Assembly: GCA_965216325.1 (NCBI GenBank)
Contig: OZ244160.1
Location: 2,944,001-3,008,000 of the forward strand
Reading direction: 5' to 3'
Length of the DNA stretch: 64,000 bases
Source: Coraliomargarita sp.
GTDB lineage: Bacteria > Verrucomicrobiota > Verrucomicrobiia > Opitutales > Coraliomargaritaceae
Shown: positions 37,631-43,508 of the stretch, in pieces
How positions within the stretch are numbered: the first letter of the stretch is position 1
Layout of the letters: each line of letters starts with the position of its first letter
Translations under genes and position numbers: made by a program
Notes under the pieces: generated by a model
Told to the model about the DNA's origin: nothing
Database searches by the model: none
Seen by the model: the letters and a program-made list of their open reading frames with translations, nothing else

Positions 37631-39769
37631 TTACAAAAAAGCATACAGGCAGAACCAGCCGCCGACTGAGGCAACGATGGTAAGCCCGAGGGCGATCCAG
37701 ATGATTTTTCTGACTCGGTGGCTCTCATCGAAGCTGCACTGGGCACTGACGGGGAGGGTGGCTCGCTTGGTGAGGACGCGTCCAAGTGCCGCTGAGATGA
37801 GTGTGCGCCCGTTCACTGCCCAGCCGGATGCATCCAATAGGGGAGCAAGGGTGCGCTTACGAAGTTTGAGCCAGGCGATGATCATCGACGGTAGGGAGAT
37901 CATTAAGACCATACTGATTAGAATCAGTGGTAGCTGCCAGAGGGGGAGTGCTTTCATTGTCTCAAATAGAGACGCGAGACCGGCTCCAAGTGCACCGAGT
38001 GCAATGCCACCGGCAGCCAGCATGCCTGCGAGTCCTCCGGCTCCGCTGAGTGTTGTTGGTTTTGCCGCTGCGTTCTCGCTGCCGACGTTTTTGACGCCGC
38101 TTTCAAGTTGCTTCTGAATCGCTTTGTCTCGGGTGACTGCCCATTTCTCGAGCTGATCGCCAATGAATCTGCCGACCCGGACGTAGGGCATGAGGAAGGC
38201 CTCGCCGATGCAGATCGGGTTTTGAATGATTCGGACTACTGTAGTGTCCCAAAGCTTACCCTTTTTATCGAGAAAGATACCGTTGCGACCGACGATGAGA
38301 TTGGCGGAGTCACCAGCGGTAAACACCGAAGCAATGTAGAATTTCCCTGGGGAGTCTTTGCGGTGACACTGGCAATAGACTACAAAGGCGCGGGAGAGGG
38401 CAGCGAGTGCAGCATGCTTGCCGGGATCGGCGACTTTGAGGGTCAACTGGCACTCACGACCATCGAGGTAGAGTGTGCCCGCTTGAAAGATCGCGCTCCG
38501 TTCCTTTGCGTAGAAGTCGTTGAAGTTGACGAAGTTATTGAGGATTTGAACGAGGTCGCGGTGGAAACGGGCAAGCTGCTCGACGGCATCGACCGATTTC
38601 ATCCGTGGCGCGAGCGCGAGGTCTTCGGCTAGCATTGCTGCGAGCTGGTCCTGTAGATCCGATTGCAACAAGGCTCGTGCGCGGGTGATTCCGAGCTTTT
38701 CAACTCCTGTTTCCGGCTTGGACTGGCGCCATTTACGATAGCTGCTGAAGCGCAGCTTCACTTCTTGCCACTCTGCTCGTGAGAGTGATTCTGGAGTCCC
38801 AAACTTCAGTGGTTCGATAATCTGACTGAAGAGCGCGTCGAAGCGACTTTGCCACTCTGGGTTGATTCCGCCTCTGAGTGGCAATTCTGCTTCCGGTCCA
38901 ACCGTTGCCAAGGGGAGGCCTTCGATTTCCTGATTGCTGCTCGAGAGGTCGGTATCGGCGATCTGTTTGTAAAGTGCGACATCACGATTCAGCGGCTCAA
39001 TCGCACGTGAGTCGAAGGCCGCAAGCTGGCAGCGGGCGTAGAAATCGTCTAGCTTTGCCTCGATGGCTTTTAAGCTTTTGAAGGCTTTTGGGGTGGATTC
39101 CGCGAGTGGAAATACTTCGTTGTTTGCTTCGGTTTCACCCTGTGTCCACCAGTCATTATAGGCATTCAGCTCTTTGAAAAAGCTATCCAGTTTCTGTTGT
39201 CCAATGCCAGGTGTGCCGCCGCGGTCGGTGTCTGCGCCGACGGTATCCATAATCTCCTGAATTAACTGCTGGAGCTCTTCGCTATCGACGGAATCCTTGG
39301 AAATGACACCGTCGCCGTTGTAGCGGGATTGGCCGAAAATCTTGGCGGTGTTGGCGGATTGTGCGACCGAGATGTGCGTTGCATCGGCACTACCTGTATT
39401 CGCCAGTATCTGCTTCGCGGAGGCGAGTAGGGCGCCACCCTCGTCATCATCTGCGCGAATTGCATCCAGTGGTAAGTCACCTCCATCAAATAGAGATTCC
39501 GGCTTTGATAGGCGAGCGAGCGTCCATTGCACCGCCGTTAGCATCTCTTCGATACGCACGCGGCCATCTGCATCATGATCGATTAAAGCGAGTGTTTTGC
39601 TGTCAATCTCCAAGCCATTGACGGGGCAACTGAGTGCGACCCATAACTTTGGATCGAGTGTCTCGAGGGCGCGTAGGTCCTCGACGCTGTTGAGCTGAAC
39701 TTGAAAAATGCCCCCGCTGTGGCGCAGTTGCCAGGGGTGCTTGGATTTGAGGGCGTTGAGCTTAAGCAT
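37631..39769 (-). CDS. Large hypothetical membrane protein with EF-hand-like loops
   Basis: 712-aa ORF with DHDADGRVRIEE and NGDGVI loops and C-terminal TM helices. Confidence 0.7.
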   Translation of the reverse strand: MLKLNALKSKHPWQLRHSGGIFQVQLNSVEDLRALETLDPKLWVALSCPVNGLEIDSKTLALIDHDADGRVRIEEMLTAVQWTLARLSKPESLFDGGDLPLDAIRADDDEGGALLASAKQILANTGSADATHISVAQSANTAKIFGQSRYNGDGVISKDSVDSEELQQLIQEIMDTVGADTDRGGTPGIGQQKLDSFFKELNAYNDWWTQGETEANNEVFPLAESTPKAFKSLKAIEAKLDDFYARCQLAAFDSRAIEPLNRDVALYKQIADTDLSSSNQEIEGLPLATVGPEAELPLRGGINPEWQSRFDALFSQIIEPLKFGTPESLSRAEWQEVKLRFSSYRKWRQSKPETGVEKLGITRARALLQSDLQDQLAAMLAEDLALAPRMKSVDAVEQLARFHRDLVQILNNFVNFNDFYAKERSAIFQAGTLYLDGRECQLTLKVADPGKHAALAALSRAFVVYCQCHRKDSPGKFYIASVFTAGDSANLIVGRNGIFLDKKGKLWDTTVVRIIQNPICIGEAFLMPYVRVGRFIGDQLEKWAVTRDKAIQKQLESGVKNVGSENAAAKPTTLSGAGGLAGMLAAGGIALGALGAGLASLFETMKALPLWQLPLILISMVLMISLPSMIIAWLKLRKRTLAPLLDASGWAVNGRTLISAALGRVLTKRATLPVSAQCSFDESHRVRKIIWIALGLTIVASVGGWFCLYAFL

Positions 39770-39820
39770 TTAACGTTTTTGTATAGTAGTAATTCGTTCG
39801 ATGTTAAGATAATTCATAAG

Positions 39821-39897
39821 CTAGGGGCGCTGCTTGCGGCGCCCGTCCTATGGAACAGAATACCCACACGATGACGGGCTTCGCGAGCAAAGCCCCT
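39821..39897. repeat. REPIN interrupted at its right CT|AC end by the IS110
   Basis: CTAGGGGCGCTGCTTGCGGCGCCC ... GGGCTTCGCGAGCAAAGCCCCT; the missing AC follows the element at 41374-41375. Confidence 0.75.
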
Positions 39898-39959
39898 GCT
39901 ATGTTCGTTTCTGTCAAGAGTGTAGAAGCGTGTGAGTGTTTTTACATAAGATAAGTGGT

Positions 39960-40175
39960 TTGTTTTGATTGCAATCGTCTTTGAGCGTCCACCGCGCATG
40001 GCCTCGGAGTTTCGATGATCCGGGATAACCTGCTATCCGTGTTTCTGAGTGTTTCTCAGAAGAGCACACTATGACCTATCCATTGGGTCATTCAAAAGCT
40101 TGGTGGCGAAGTGGCCTATTCTACAAAATCGTTGTGTTGGCAACAGGGGCTTGGTCAGACTCACTCCGCACAAAG
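39960..40175 (-). ncRNA. Putative bridge/seek RNA of the IS110 element (boundaries approximate)
   Basis: Stem-loops whose internal loops contain target-matching CAAGCCCCT and GTAG, and donor-matching ATAGCAG. Confidence 0.55.
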
Positions 40176-40233
40176 GAAAACTGCAAAAGAACGTTAAAAT
40201 CAGAGGGTGAAGGCCTTTAGCGTTGGTTCGGAC

Positions 40234-41322
40234 TTATGGGTTTTGTCTGCTTATCAGTCCGAAGTCTTCGAGACTGCATTGGCCAGTGCGTATGCGCCAC
40301 CAGTCCACGGCGAACTGCCGGGCGATGGCCACGGCAATTTTCTTGCGGGTCGCCTTACTGGTGGTCTCGTCGCTGAGCTTGGCCTGCCATTTACGCACCC
40401 CACTGTAGCCGGGATTCCACCGGATCAATAACCAGGCGCACTCTTGTAGCATATGCCGCAGGCGGGGACTGCCGTGTTTGTTGATCGAGCCCTGGAAACG
40501 CCGATTTGCACTAGTGTCTTCGCTTGGGCACAGTCCGGTAAAGGAACTGACCGCCTTGCGGTTGTTGAATCGCTTCCAGTTGCAGACCTCACGTTCGATC
40601 TGTTCATAGAGGACCACCCCCATGCCTTTAGGCAGCACCCGTTCCGGCTCGAGCGCTTCGATACGTTCTTCGATGTTGCTGATTAGCTCGCTAAAGTGCA
40701 GGCAGTTTAACCGCAGTGGCTCCAGCAGGCTGATCAAAAAATCGTCGAGCTGTTCGAGTAGCTGCATCCATTTGCGCGGCTTCCACCAGCCGCTGGGTAA
40801 GGGTTGATCGTAATACAGTCCCAGACTCTTACCACGCTTGGCCGCACGGCCACGTTCTTTGACGAAGCTTTCACGCTGCCGGGTTAGGCTGCGGTGACGC
40901 TCTTCTTGCTCGCTGGGCACACGCACGACACTGAAGCTGCGGTCATTGCCCCGCAGATAGCCGTCCAGACTCAAGACCATTTGCAACGCATCACGCGCGT
41001 CGGTCTTTACCTTCTTACCATGAGTGTCCCAGTTGATCGGGCGGATTACGTGGTTGTTCACGCCCATCGCCTTGAGCTTGCGGTGCAGGCTGTAACCAAA
41101 AGGACCGGCCTCGTAGCAACTTTGCAACTGCTCGCACTGAGTGCTCAGCTGCTTAATCCATCGAAGGAAGATATCAGGCTTCATGCGCTTCGCGCGTGAA
41201 GGGGCGCTGCTATCGATCTTCATGACCACCACGTAGGTGCTCGCATGCACGTCAATGCCAAGCTTGATTACTGTGCCCAGTGCGTTCTTAGTTGTCCGTG
41301 TAGATGATGTGGGGTTTTGCAT
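40234..41322 (-). CDS. IS110 family DEDD transposase/recombinase
   Basis: GIDVH, CYEAGPFG, KTDARDA, GLCPSEDTSA and GSINKHG motifs. Confidence 0.93.
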   Translation of the reverse strand: MQNPTSSTRTTKNALGTVIKLGIDVHASTYVVVMKIDSSAPSRAKRMKPDIFLRWIKQLSTQCEQLQSCYEAGPFGYSLHRKLKAMGVNNHVIRPINWDTHGKKVKTDARDALQMVLSLDGYLRGNDRSFSVVRVPSEQEERHRSLTRQRESFVKERGRAAKRGKSLGLYYDQPLPSGWWKPRKWMQLLEQLDDFLISLLEPLRLNCLHFSELISNIEERIEALEPERVLPKGMGVVLYEQIEREVCNWKRFNNRKAVSSFTGLCPSEDTSANRRFQGSINKHGSPRLRHMLQECAWLLIRWNPGYSGVRKWQAKLSDETTSKATRKKIAVAIARQFAVDWWRIRTGQCSLEDFGLISRQNP

Positions 41323-41432
41323 AAGTTTATCATCATAGCACTTCCGTGCTCCTGATAAACGCCCATGTCATCTACGCGATCTTTCTTCGCCTTGTCGCTT
41401 GCTCCAATCTGCGAGCCCGCTTTTCTAAGGTC

Positions 41433-43508
41433 GTGGATTTTAAACTCAGTAGTGACTACGCTCCTCAGGGAGATCAGCCGGAGGCGATCAAAGCATTGGT
41501 CGATTCGCTGCGTTCGGGGACGAAGTATCAGACGCTGCTGGGGGTGACTGGGTCGGGTAAAACCTTCTCGATGGCGAACGTGATTCAGGAACTGCAGCGT
41601 CCGGCGCTGATCATTTCGCACAATAAGACCTTGGCGGCTCAGCTTTACTCCGAGTTTAAGGCTTTCTTTCCTGAGAATGCGGTCGAGTATTTTGTTAGTT
41701 ATTACGATTACTATCAGCCTGAAGCCTATATTCCACAGACGGATACCTATATCGAAAAAGACTCCTCGATTAACGACGAGATCGAGCGTCTGCGGATTGC
41801 GGCTTCGTCATCACTGATCAGTCGTCGAGATGTGATCGTGATTGCTTCAGTGTCGTGTATCTACGGCCTAGGCTCTCCGGAAGACTTCAAGGAGATGATG
41901 CTTCCGCTTGAAGTTGGGATGGAACTCTCGCGTGATACTTTTTTGGAGCGACTGGTTGAGATTCTCTACGAGCGCAATGACGTCGATTTTAAGCGAGGCA
42001 GCTTCCGGGTGCGTGGCGATGTGGTGGATATATATCCTGCTTACATGGAAAGTGCCATCCGTGTAGAGTTCTGGGGCGATGAACTCGAGGCGATTTTTGA
42101 ATTGGATCCTTTAACGGGGGAGACCGCTGGGCGGTTGGAGATGTTCCATCTGTATCCAGCGACTCAATACGTTACGCCAAAGGATAAAATTGAAAACGCG
42201 GTAAAGGGTATTCGGGCCGAACTGGATGAGCGAATCGCATGGTTTGAGTCGCAGAATTTGTTGCTGGAAGCGCAGCGGATTAAAATGCGCACTGAGTATG
42301 ATATTGAGTTGCTACAGGAAATGGGCTTCTGCACTGGGATTGAGAACTACTCTCGTTACCTGTCTGGGCGAAAGCCAGGTGAGCGTCCGTTCTGCCTGAT
42401 TGATTTCTTTCCGAAGGATTTTCTGCTCTTTGTTGACGAAAGTCACGTAACACTGCCGCAAGTTCGTGCCATGTATAATGGCGATAAAGCACGCAAAGAA
42501 CGCTTGGTTCAATACGGCTTCCGTTTGCCCTCTGCTTTGGATAATCGGCCGCAAAAGCTGGAAGAGTTCGAGTCCATCACAGGGCAGACTGTGTATGTAT
42601 CGGCGACTCCTGCGCAGCATGAGTTTGATGTGTCTAAAACGATTGCCGAGCAGGTGATTCGCCCGACCGGCCTGCTGGATCCTGTGATGGAACTACGCCC
42701 GATCAAAGGACAGGTTGAAGATGTGATGGGAGAAGTCCGCAATGCTGCGGATGAGGGCGAACGCACCTTAATCACCACGCTGACCAAGCGCATGTCCGAG
42801 GATCTCACCGATTACCTGCGTGAGGCCGGCCTGAGTGTCGAGTATCTACACTCAGATATCGATGCGATTGAGCGTGTTGAGATTCTACGTCGATTGCGTA
42901 AGGGCGACTTCGATGTTTTGATTGGGGTGAATTTGTTGCGTGAAGGTTTGGATCTTCCAGAGGTTGCCTTGGTTGGTATTCTCGATGCCGATAAGGAAGG
43001 CTTCCTACGCAGTTCGACGAGTTTGATCCAGACGGCCGGTCGTGCCGCACGTCACGAGAAGGGACGAGTAATCCTGTATGCCGATAATATTACGGATTCG
43101 ATCAAGCACACGCTTGAGACCACCGATTACCGCCGTGAGAAACAAATCGCCTACAATGAAGCGCATGGCATCACTCCGAAGTCCGTTCAACGCGGGCTTG
43201 ATGAGAGCCTGCATGCACCTGGCAGTAAGCGCTACTCGCAAGAGGATGACGAGCCATTGCTGGTTGCTGAATCCGATGATCGTGATGTCGCTGAGGTGAT
43301 CGCCGAAATGGAAGAAGAGATGTTGGAGGCGGCACGAAAGCTCGAGTTCGAAAAAGCCGCACTGATTCGAGACCAAATTGAGATTTTGCAATCCGGTAAA
43401 ATGGACACCGCAACCGGCGCAGCCAAAGCCAAGTCCTCCGGAGGCAAGCGGCGTAAAGGAAAAGCCGTCTACAATGCCAAAGGCCTGCCGAAGAAGCGCA
43501 GGAAATAA
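41433..43508 (+). CDS. uvrB: Excinuclease ABC subunit B
   Basis: GDQPEAI, GVTGSGKT, YYDYYQPEAY and DESH motifs. GTG start inferred at 41433, because the longer ORF starts inside the IS. Confidence 0.96.
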   Translation: MDFKLSSDYAPQGDQPEAIKALVDSLRSGTKYQTLLGVTGSGKTFSMANVIQELQRPALIISHNKTLAAQLYSEFKAFFPENAVEYFVSYYDYYQPEAYIPQTDTYIEKDSSINDEIERLRIAASSSLISRRDVIVIASVSCIYGLGSPEDFKEMMLPLEVGMELSRDTFLERLVEILYERNDVDFKRGSFRVRGDVVDIYPAYMESAIRVEFWGDELEAIFELDPLTGETAGRLEMFHLYPATQYVTPKDKIENAVKGIRAELDERIAWFESQNLLLEAQRIKMRTEYDIELLQEMGFCTGIENYSRYLSGRKPGERPFCLIDFFPKDFLLFVDESHVTLPQVRAMYNGDKARKERLVQYGFRLPSALDNRPQKLEEFESITGQTVYVSATPAQHEFDVSKTIAEQVIRPTGLLDPVMELRPIKGQVEDVMGEVRNAADEGERTLITTLTKRMSEDLTDYLREAGLSVEYLHSDIDAIERVEILRRLRKGDFDVLIGVNLLREGLDLPEVALVGILDADKEGFLRSSTSLIQTAGRAARHEKGRVILYADNITDSIKHTLETTDYRREKQIAYNEAHGITPKSVQRGLDESLHAPGSKRYSQEDDEPLLVAESDDRDVAEVIAEMEEEMLEAARKLEFEKAALIRDQIEILQSGKMDTATGAAKAKSSGGKRRKGKAVYNAKGLPKKRRK

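Follow-up and report, generated by a model that had tools for sequence, protein, structure and literature searches.

An insertion sequence (IS) of the IS110 family resides within a 64,000-nucleotide (nt) stretch of the genome of a Coraliomargarita species (contig OZ244160.1, positions 2,944,001 to 3,008,000). This whole stretch is termed the window, and its coordinates are used throughout unless a contig position is given. We consider it very probable that the insertion is an autonomous element of the IS1111 type that targets repetitive extragenic palindromic (REP) sequences and is guided by a bridge RNA, or seekRNA, encoded downstream of its recombinase gene. The element has precise ends and occupies a single position in its target REP. 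Its downstream region carries a conserved RNA fold in which two segments covary with the target DNA, and a third segment matches one of the element's own ends. A first-pass annotation, made from the sequence alone, had proposed a REP-targeting, RNA-guided recombinase with its RNA downstream of the gene. This proposal is supported by the use of the same REP position in nine of nine copies, by the conserved fold and by the covariation between guides and flanks, and all of the coordinates and strings that were listed at the time are present in the sequence.

Copies, ends and target of the element

The element spans positions 39898 to 41373 on the minus strand (1476 base pairs, bp), as defined by its copies and their aligned flanks. 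Nine copies are found in the single 3.06-Mb contig searched, eight of them identical and one with a single mismatch, and in DNA contigs from four public runs the depth of the element is approximately nine times that of its flanks. The identity of eight of the nine copies points to recent activity, and the element is an intact, recently active mobile element. When the flanks of the other copies were aligned, as the first-pass annotation had suggested, the REP-side flank proved to be AAGCCCCT in all nine copies and the other flank AC in eight, with TC in the ninth.

The dinucleotide CT (plus strand; AG in the sense of the transposase) is found at both junctions, and the boundary of the element can therefore slide by 2 nt. 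This dinucleotide is the common core, and beyond it there is zero duplication. In the transposase sense, the element reads AG-ATGAC...(tnp)...(guide RNA)...ATAGC, and the full order of parts is a left target ending in GT, the core AG, ATGAC, the transposase gene (tnp), a noncoding region (NCR) of 336 nt, the right end ATAGC, a second core AG and the right target GGGCTTTGC. Excising positions 39898 to 41373 in silico rebuilds GCAAAGCCCCTAC, with the joined flanks reading ...GCAAAGCCCCT plus AC. Thus, removal of the element restores the REP, as had been noted previously.

The interrupted REP, GACGGGCTTCGCGAGCAAAGCCCCT, is located at 39873-39897 on the plus strand, and in the transposase sense it provides the core and right target AG-GGGCTTTGC. 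Its final two bases, AC, are found at 41374-41375 on the same strand, where they correspond in the transposase sense to the left target GT that precedes the core AG. An inverted partner, CTAGGGGCGCTGCTTGCGGCGCCCGTC, occupies 39821-39847 of the plus strand and makes the target a REP doublet forming a hairpin (REPIN). The REPIN previously reported to begin at 39821 is therefore real.

The target belongs to a genuine REP family of the GTAG type. Empty AAGCCCCTAC sites occur 34 times in the genome, compared with 4.5 expected from composition, and the total of AAGCCCCT(AC) sites rises to 43 when occupied sites are included. The consensus of the empty sites, GCGGGCT.CGCAAGCAAAGCCCCTAC, is an imperfect palindrome that ends in the reverse of GTAG, and many of these sites form REPINs with an inverted partner located a few tens of bases from them, in the same arrangement as the target.

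The genome also contains 16 matches to PF01797 (Y1 transposase). One of these (C1:1680124-1680354) sits between target-REP sites at 1679978 and 1680606, which is the arrangement expected of a REP-associated tyrosine transposase (RAYT), and a Y1 transposase between REP sites fits a REP/RAYT system. Some of the 16 matches are probably copies of IS200/IS605 elements, and one begins at the end of the window (C1:3007977, approximately 63977).

Relatives and a conserved RNA fold downstream of the recombinase gene

Related elements were collected by several searches. A protein-based scan, using one genome per species, yielded 20 loci from Opitutales and other Verrucomicrobiota (one is labelled Sulfotelmatobacter), with an amino acid (aa) identity of 47-72%. 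At 13 of these 20 loci, the 3' NCR is homologous at the DNA level. A pattern scan of metagenomes matched 119 stretches, and the 80 of these that were examined were mostly chance matches; the metagenomes nevertheless yielded a second, more distant subfamily (hereafter subfamily 2). Genomes and metagenomes together provide approximately 30 RNA-bearing loci. In a sample of 40 related genomes, a full related element with 73% DNA identity was found only in G014, which belongs to another genus of the same family, and two others (G001 and G021) gave weak partial matches only. The distribution of the element is thus patchy among the genomes searched.

The NCR that follows the tnp stop codon measures 336 nt, compared with 51 nt of noncoding sequence upstream of the gene, and all aligned relatives likewise carry a downstream NCR. 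On comparative evidence, this region is predicted to encode a structured RNA of about 200 nt on the transposase strand. The consensus fold of 12 relatives places the predicted bridge RNA at positions 39978 to 40176 of the minus strand (approximately 199 nt), where it is closed by an outer helix formed between 40176-40167 and 39987-39978. Within these boundaries is a target-binding module (40106-40169, minus strand) composed of an outer stem, GCGGAGTG.GTCT / AGGC.CACTTCGC, an internal loop and an inner hairpin (40145-40140 with 40135-40130) in which three of six pairs show compensatory changes. The adjoining domain (39989-40106, minus strand) is closed by the long-range helix CCACCA/CGGTGG, which joins 40106-40101 with 39994-39989 and has changes on both sides in five of its six pairs. 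This domain holds the donor region and a further hairpin.

In total, the consensus structure comprises 40 pairs in nine helices. Paired combinations fill 93.1% of the cells of the 12-sequence alignment, and 20 of the 40 pairs exhibit compensatory changes on both sides. None of 500 column shuffles reached the observed pairing and covariation, and sliding the partners by one to three columns reduced pairing to 33-50%. In addition, several pairs alternate between G-C and G-U, which indicates that the transposase strand is the folding strand. The 12-sequence alignment was used in place of a mixed alignment of 21 sequences, on which RNAalifold misplaced the outer stem of subfamily 2.

The minimum-free-energy fold of the single sequence contains the stem with a guide-bearing internal loop that the first-pass annotation had described. 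In this fold, the stem GGAGTGAGTCT/AGGCCACTTC (40167-40157 / 40117-40108) encloses an inner hairpin and an internal loop with CCAAGCCCCU on its 5' side and UUUUGUAGAAU on its 3' side. A second stem-loop carrying the donor strings had also been proposed. The strings are present as described, but the structure around them is better regarded as a donor region with multiple helices than as a single stem-loop.

Target guides change in step with the flanking DNA

The internal loop of the target-binding module carries two segments that correspond to the insertion site. The long guide on its 5' side, ACCAAGCCCCT (40145-40155, minus strand), is complementary to the core and right target on the sense (top) strand, AGGGGCTT. 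The short guide on its 3' side, TTGTAG (40121-40126, minus strand), is identical to the left target and core of the top strand (..GT-AG) and would pair with CTAC on the bottom strand. Within the RNA, CAAGCCCCT (40153-40145) is located 5' of GTAG (40124-40121), and the core forms the end of each guide (..CT and ..AG, respectively). The GTAG at 40121-40124, like the donor strings ATAGCAG (40030-40036) and GTCAT (40071-40075), was found on the minus strand exactly where it had been annotated.

Matches as short as these might be incidental, for example if the NCR carried a fossil fragment of the target and the protein alone recognized the REP hairpin. REP hairpins are indeed structured targets, and a preprint on ISPpu10 reports a structural component of target recognition (10.64898/2026.03.19.712850). 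Moreover, an 8-mer match in a single sequence could arise by chance. About 1.6 copies of AAGCCCCT are expected per window on both strands, and only two exist: one at 39890-39897 of the plus strand, at the insertion site, and one at 40145-40152 of the minus strand, inside the 3' NCR, where a match on that strand is expected by chance at a level of only about 0.004 for 336 nt. The guide loop is also framed by helices with compensatory changes, and the guides change in step with the flanks in relatives whose targets differ. An incidental origin of the matches is therefore very improbable.

The changes in guides and flanks are evident when relatives are compared. The loop segments vary between relatives and are surrounded by conserved stems, and the right flanks linked to these guides include AGGGGCTT, AGGGGTCA, AGGAGTCA and AGGGGTCG, with GT, GA or AA before AG on the left side. 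The element itself has eight contiguous matches between its long guide and AGGGGCTT, and L011 matches AGGGGCTTCA at 10 of 10 positions. Synoicihabitans and other loci have the flank AGGGGTCA(GG). At L016, where the flank is AGGAGTCA, the guide has T in place of C, and the target correspondingly has A in place of G. The flanks of subfamily 2 are AGGGGTCGG or AGGGGTCAG, tracking the guide sequences CCGA or CTGA. Matched co-changes (guide/target) are AAGC/GCTT, TGAC/GTCA, CTCCT/AGGAG (L016) and CCGA/TCGG versus CTGA/TCAG.

A flank was extracted for 29 loci, and 21 of these have at least eight contiguous matches to the long guide. When guides were permuted among 37 insertion events, including the nine copies of the element itself, the observed mean of 6.19 matches out of 8 (positions 3-10) exceeded the permuted mean of 4.74 +/- 0.23, and none of 10,000 permutations gave a value as high. 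Kinship among the loci inflates this test, but at least four separate co-changes are nonetheless visible by eye. The short guides GTAG, GAAG and AAAG match the left flanks GT, GA and AA at 15 of 17 related loci, and the short guide also matches at four of four junctions in G014 (GT|AG) and in eight of the nine copies of the element. The comparison of the 3' NCR with target sites across homologues that had been recommended earlier thus supports covariation of both target guides with the flanking DNA in the genomes and metagenomes of relatives.

Several individual loci have additional features. The copy at C1:2070238-2071713, outside the window, is both the sole copy with a variant base and the sole copy with a TC flank. 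This flank represents a left target that mismatches the short guide beside the core, and the copy may be an off-target insertion or the result of a later rearrangement between copies. Right-flank matches are imperfect at L026 and L024. At the metagenome loci L044, L055 and L095, the left flank also holds AAGGGGTC(A/G), the motif of the right target, and the uninterrupted target of this metagenome subfamily may itself form a short direct repeat or belong to a family of repeats.

A further RNA region that probably corresponds to the ends of the element

The 3' side of the donor region, GATAGCAGGTTATC (40024-40037, minus strand), contains ATAGCAG (40036-40030), which matches the final 5 nt of the right end and the adjoining core AG at seven of seven positions. 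Among the relatives found through the protein, the NCR alignment shows no variation in this segment. Of the 13 aligned relatives, 10 have the right end CATAGC|AG, and L013, L014 and L015 are each one base off. The 5' side, TGGATAGGTCATAG (40069-40082, minus strand), contains GTCAT (40071-40075), which is complementary to the left end ATGAC. Some relatives carry ATGTCAT, in which the complementarity to the left end, ATGACAT, extends to 7 nt.

From these correspondences, the second region of the RNA is likely to recognize the joined ends of the element. The assignment of GTCAT as the left-end guide is tentative, given that its match does not include the core, that changes in the left end are only partly compensated in the RNA of subfamily 2, and that no well-kept outer stem was found that would make the donor region a simple internal loop. 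The first-pass annotation had already called this match weak, and its standing is much the same after comparison with relatives. A candidate outer stem of the donor loop, GGATA/TATCC, was dropped when it was not kept in L011, L015 and L103.

A conserved structure downstream of a transposase gene could also be a regulatory 3' untranslated region, serving as an antisense target or a stabilizer of the transposase mRNA instead of as a guide. Additional small RNAs that regulate the transposase are described for ISPpu9 (PMC12288879), and the RNA of the Coraliomargarita element is predicted from DNA. However, a regulatory role leaves unexplained why two loop segments track the target flanks and why a third segment is identical to one of the element's own ends together with the core, and we give this explanation very little weight compared with a guide RNA.

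The recombinase and the placement of the element in the IS1111 group

The only long open reading frame (ORF) of the element, at 40234-41322 on the minus strand, is intact and encodes a transposase/recombinase of 362 aa. It matches PF01548 (DEDD_Tnp_IS110; 29.2 bits, cut-off 29) and PF02371 (Transposase_20; 52.9 bits, cut-off 21.3), and it scores 137.8 bits (E = 4.7e-40) against NCBIfam NF033542, 'IS110 family RNA-guided transposase'. The motifs KLGIDVH, CYEAGPFGY, KVKTDxRDA and GLCPSEDxS are kept among the transposases of the clade, and we tentatively take their D, E, D..D and S residues to be the catalytic DEDD/Ser set. A tblastn search against plasmids returned distant matches only, with identities of at most 32%.

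Elements of the IS1111 type are described as having a long NCR downstream of tnp and an RNA whose top-strand match precedes its bottom-strand match in the 5' to 3' direction, the reverse of the IS110-type order (Siddiquee 2024, PMC11187229). The same account gives subterminal inverted repeats of 11-13 bp that are perfect or near-perfect, terminal extensions that measure 7 (or 6) bp at the left end and 3 bp at the right end, and transposases of 330-350 aa with the motif GL-P----S(t)G, the ISEc21 cluster having 345-385 aa. A bridge RNA has been predicted in the right end of 93% of IS1111 elements (Durrant 2024, PMC11208160). The Coraliomargarita element has the downstream NCR, the top-then-bottom order of guides, and extensions of 7 nt on the left and 3 nt on the right. 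Its left subterminal inverted repeat, ATGGGCGTTTAT (41355-41366, minus strand), is preceded by the 7-nt extension AGATGAC (41367-41373), and its right repeat, ATGTTCGTTTCT in plus-strand letters (39901-39912), is followed outward by the 3-nt extension AGC (39898-39900). Only ATGGGG/CCCCAT is clear in the subterminal repeats of relatives, and a repeat search with a seed of 6 did not recover the pair. The transposase falls outside the quoted length, which is a descriptive and soft range, and its motif, GLCPSEDTSA, keeps the serine but has the final G replaced. From these structural features rather than from a tree, we assign the element to the IS1111 type with high confidence.

The same guide mechanism might instead belong to a deep IS110-type branch outside the IS1111 group proper, since IS110-type branches with a downstream NCR are described as exceptions (Siddiquee 2024, PMC11187229). 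The protein lengths of the element (362 aa) and its relatives (377-391 aa) exceed 330-350 aa, and 362 aa is inside the range of the ISEc21 cluster. The subterminal repeats share just 9 of 12 bases, SA rather than SG or TG closes the C-terminal motif, and identity is only 22.8% to IS4321 and 27.3% to ISEc45. Against such a branch are the 7-nt and 3-nt terminal extensions and the top-then-bottom order of guides, both of which fit IS1111, as well as a GL-P----S motif in common with IS4321 and ISEc45, a full-length similarity to ISEc45 (residues 21-344) and the downstream position of the NCR in every relative. Overall, a deep IS110-type origin is unlikely, and membership in the IS1111 group is preferred.

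A number of observations weigh against an RNA-guided element of the IS1111 type. The protein, at 362 aa, exceeds the 330-350 aa given for IS1111 transposases, the NF033542 score is just below the cut-off of 140, and a phmmer search against the PDB gave zero matches to solved structures, with no profile search made. The subterminal repeats are imperfect, with 9 of 12 positions identical in a comparison by eye. With regard to the RNA, the whole 343-nt NCR is no more stable than its shuffles (z = +0.68), and the support for the structure therefore comes from covariation in relatives and not from folding energy. Rfam 15, which may hold no model for IS1111 bridge RNAs, contains no matching family, and its only match within 39500-41700 is a chance hit to a small nucleolar RNA (snoRNA; E = 3.4). 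The element sequence was not found in any RNA run.

The guides present further difficulties. The long guide mismatches the REP at position 9, where it expects G and seven of the nine targets have T. Eight of the 29 loci with an extracted flank have fewer than eight contiguous matches; some of these have 1-nt insertions or deletions or are decayed copies, and at others the junction was probably mis-called by the uncurated parser. This parser required a guide ending in C[CT]CCT and left out L025 and L027, whose loops lack CT and whose transposase matches are partial. On the donor side, the pattern used to search metagenomes contained the 3' donor guide, which is thus invariant in metagenomes by construction. 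The 5' donor guide (GTCAT/ATGTCAT) has no complement to the core, and in subfamily 2, with ATAACAT as the left end and GATAT in the RNA, only one of two changes is compensated.

The loci of Candidatus Synoicihabitans palmerolidicus (L014, L019, L020 and L026) constitute a separate case. Several have broken tnp frames, meaning no intact ORF of more than 200 aa or C-terminal pieces only, and keep the RNA region. The element family looks to be decaying in this organism.

A structured leader and a putative junction promoter

The beginning of the element also appears to be structured. Pairing between the left terminus, GATGACATGGG, and codons 4-8 of tnp, CCCACATCATC, forms a predicted leader at 41290-41375 (minus strand) whose helix encloses the ribosome-binding region and start codon along with two inner helices. 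The folding energy of this leader is -30.6 kcal/mol, compared with -14.5 +/- 3.1 for shuffled sequences (z = -5.2). Both arms are conserved in relatives, and L017 and L018 have a compensating GGGAGG/CTCCC variant. A leader of this kind could block translation of read-through transcripts and spare transcripts that originate from a promoter at the circle junction.

Such a promoter might be assembled from the two ends. TTGACA at 39912-39917 (minus strand) would constitute its -35 half, and once the element is circular it would be separated by 17 nt from TGACAT (41370-41365). The sequence TTGAC is constant at 14 nt from the right end in the reference element, L012, L015 and L016, and the second half reads TAACAT in the metagenome subfamily. 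The constant spacing supports a function without proving it. Junction promoters are described for this family (PMC11187229, PMC12288879). In the linear element, a promoter scan found no sigma-70-like promoter, and a terminator scan found no terminator after the RNA. Contigs from the four DNA runs showed neither the circle joint nor the empty-site joint, but contigs drop rare forms and are uninformative either way.

Two other features are located near the gene. An 11-nt inverted repeat that is 91% complementary (40227-40263) extends across the tnp stop codon, between the gene and the predicted start of the RNA, and could be a processing or attenuation signal. On the other side, the 720-aa mechanical ORF of a UvrB-like gene (41346-43508) starts within the element, with a GTG at 41346, and the conserved UvrB N-terminus starts near 41435. 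The element is thus approximately 60 bp upstream of the UvrB-like gene in a divergent intergenic region, and it may have displaced the promoter of this gene.

Proposed mechanism

From characterized relatives (PMC11187229, PMC12288879), we infer the expression and processing of the RNA, its binding by the recombinase, a circular intermediate, the promoter and the chemistry in the following scheme. The 362-aa recombinase, with its putative DEDD/Ser catalytic residues, would work with an RNA of about 200 nt from the right end, made from the same strand as the gene. This RNA would be transcribed with or after tnp, then processed and then bound by the recombinase. The 5' side of its first loop (..CAAGCCCCT) would pair with the sense strand of the core and right target (AG-GGGCTT), and the 3' side of this loop, (TT)GTAG, would pair with the opposite strand of the left target and core (CTAC). 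Recombination is therefore expected at AG/CT inside the terminal GTAG of the REP, with zero duplication. The second region of the RNA would read the joined ends, with ATAGCAG representing the right end plus core and GTCAT, probably, the left end. In this scheme, the element would excise as a circle with the predicted junction ...AACATAGC-AG-ATGACATGG..., which would assemble the promoter TTGACA, 17 nt, TGACAT. Insertion of the circle into another copy of the REP would follow.

Comparison with known elements

The RNA-guided mechanism of IS110 and IS1111 elements was described in 2024 (Siddiquee 2024, PMC11187229; Durrant 2024, PMC11208160), and elements of these groups that target REPs and have guide RNAs are already established in the form of IS621, ISPa11, ISPpu9 and ISPpu10 (PMC11187229, PMC11208160, PMC12288879). 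ISPa11, an IS1111 element of Pseudomonas aeruginosa, resembles the Coraliomargarita element in its REP target, in having a seekRNA from the downstream NCR, and in the location of the top-strand match 5' of the bottom-strand match (PMC11187229). This comparison is by description only, and the two differ in host phylum and REP sequence. In addition, the RNA of ISPa11 is reported to co-purify with its transposase (PMC11187229), whereas the evidence here is comparative only. ISEc11, ISKpn4 and ISPst6, the IS1111 elements whose seekRNAs were reprogrammed, also have a downstream NCR with two short target-matching segments and provide examples of natural retargeting (PMC11187229). A circular intermediate with a junction promoter is described for them (PMC11187229), and we count this as a common feature, although for the present element it is a prediction. 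Unlike the element studied here, they are reported to target a linear site or attC rather than a REP, and to have transposases of 330-350 aa compared with 362 aa.

IS621 of the IS110 group in Escherichia coli likewise inserts into REPs at a CT core, and its bridge RNA is described as having two loops, one for the target and one for the donor; in each loop, a long guide on the 5' side and a short one on the 3' side overlap at the core (PMC11208160). Viewed on the REP strand, the two systems are alike: the 5' guide corresponds to the left target plus CT, and the 3' guide to the reverse complement of CT plus the right target. The RNA of IS621 is encoded upstream of the gene, in the left end (PMC11208160), and not downstream as in the present element. 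The difference between the two appears to lie in the orientation of the gene relative to the recombination site. The first-pass annotation regarded the layout of the guides as a departure from the IS621 convention, but it is the arrangement published for IS1111 elements (PMC11187229, PMC11208160). ISPpu9 and ISPpu10 of Pseudomonas putida are also multi-copy elements, located in REPs or bacterial interspersed mosaic elements (BIMEs), and an invariant AG at both ends is where they recombine (PMC12288879). ISPpu9 differs in that it belongs to the IS110 group and has its RNA upstream, along with extra regulatory small RNAs (PMC12288879).

The closest named element by sequence is ISEc45, with 27.3% identity over residues 21-344 (E = 1e-26). 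It carries a GL.P....S motif, its subterminal inverted repeats are ATGACCTTT/AAAGGTCAT, and TTGACA is located close to its right end. It is nonetheless very distant, and its NCR has no visible similarity to that of the element.

Implications for the family

Among the papers returned by our literature search, none joins IS110 or bridge RNAs with Verrucomicrobia. The element extends REP-targeting elements of the IS1111 type to Verrucomicrobiota (Opitutales), a little-studied group. It also provides a clean natural case of RNA-guided target choice, in which nine near-identical copies occupy one REP position and the guides and sites of relatives have changed together. The current picture of how IS110 and IS1111 elements work is unchanged by these findings. 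As a divergent pair, the recombinase and its predicted RNA are a candidate for testing as an additional programmable recombinase.

It is conceivable, although we rather doubt it, that the element and its relatives from Opitutales and from soil and sediment metagenomes constitute a distinct, uncharacterized branch of RNA-guided recombinases. The arguments for such a branch begin with the protein, which scores below the NCBIfam cut-off, shares at most 32% identity with plasmid-borne IS110-family genes and has no phmmer match to a solved structure. The predicted RNA is compact at about 200 nt, with two long-range helices enclosing the target loop and the donor region, and its left-end donor guide does not read the core. 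Furthermore, the conserved leader hairpin links the left terminus with the beginning of the recombinase gene, such that translation might be licensed only from the circle junction. Finally, natural retargeting has occurred within the clade, from AGGGGTCA-type sites to the REP (AGGGGCTT). Should these differences prove to be mechanistic, we would regard the branch as a new variant and as a candidate orthogonal programmable recombinase.

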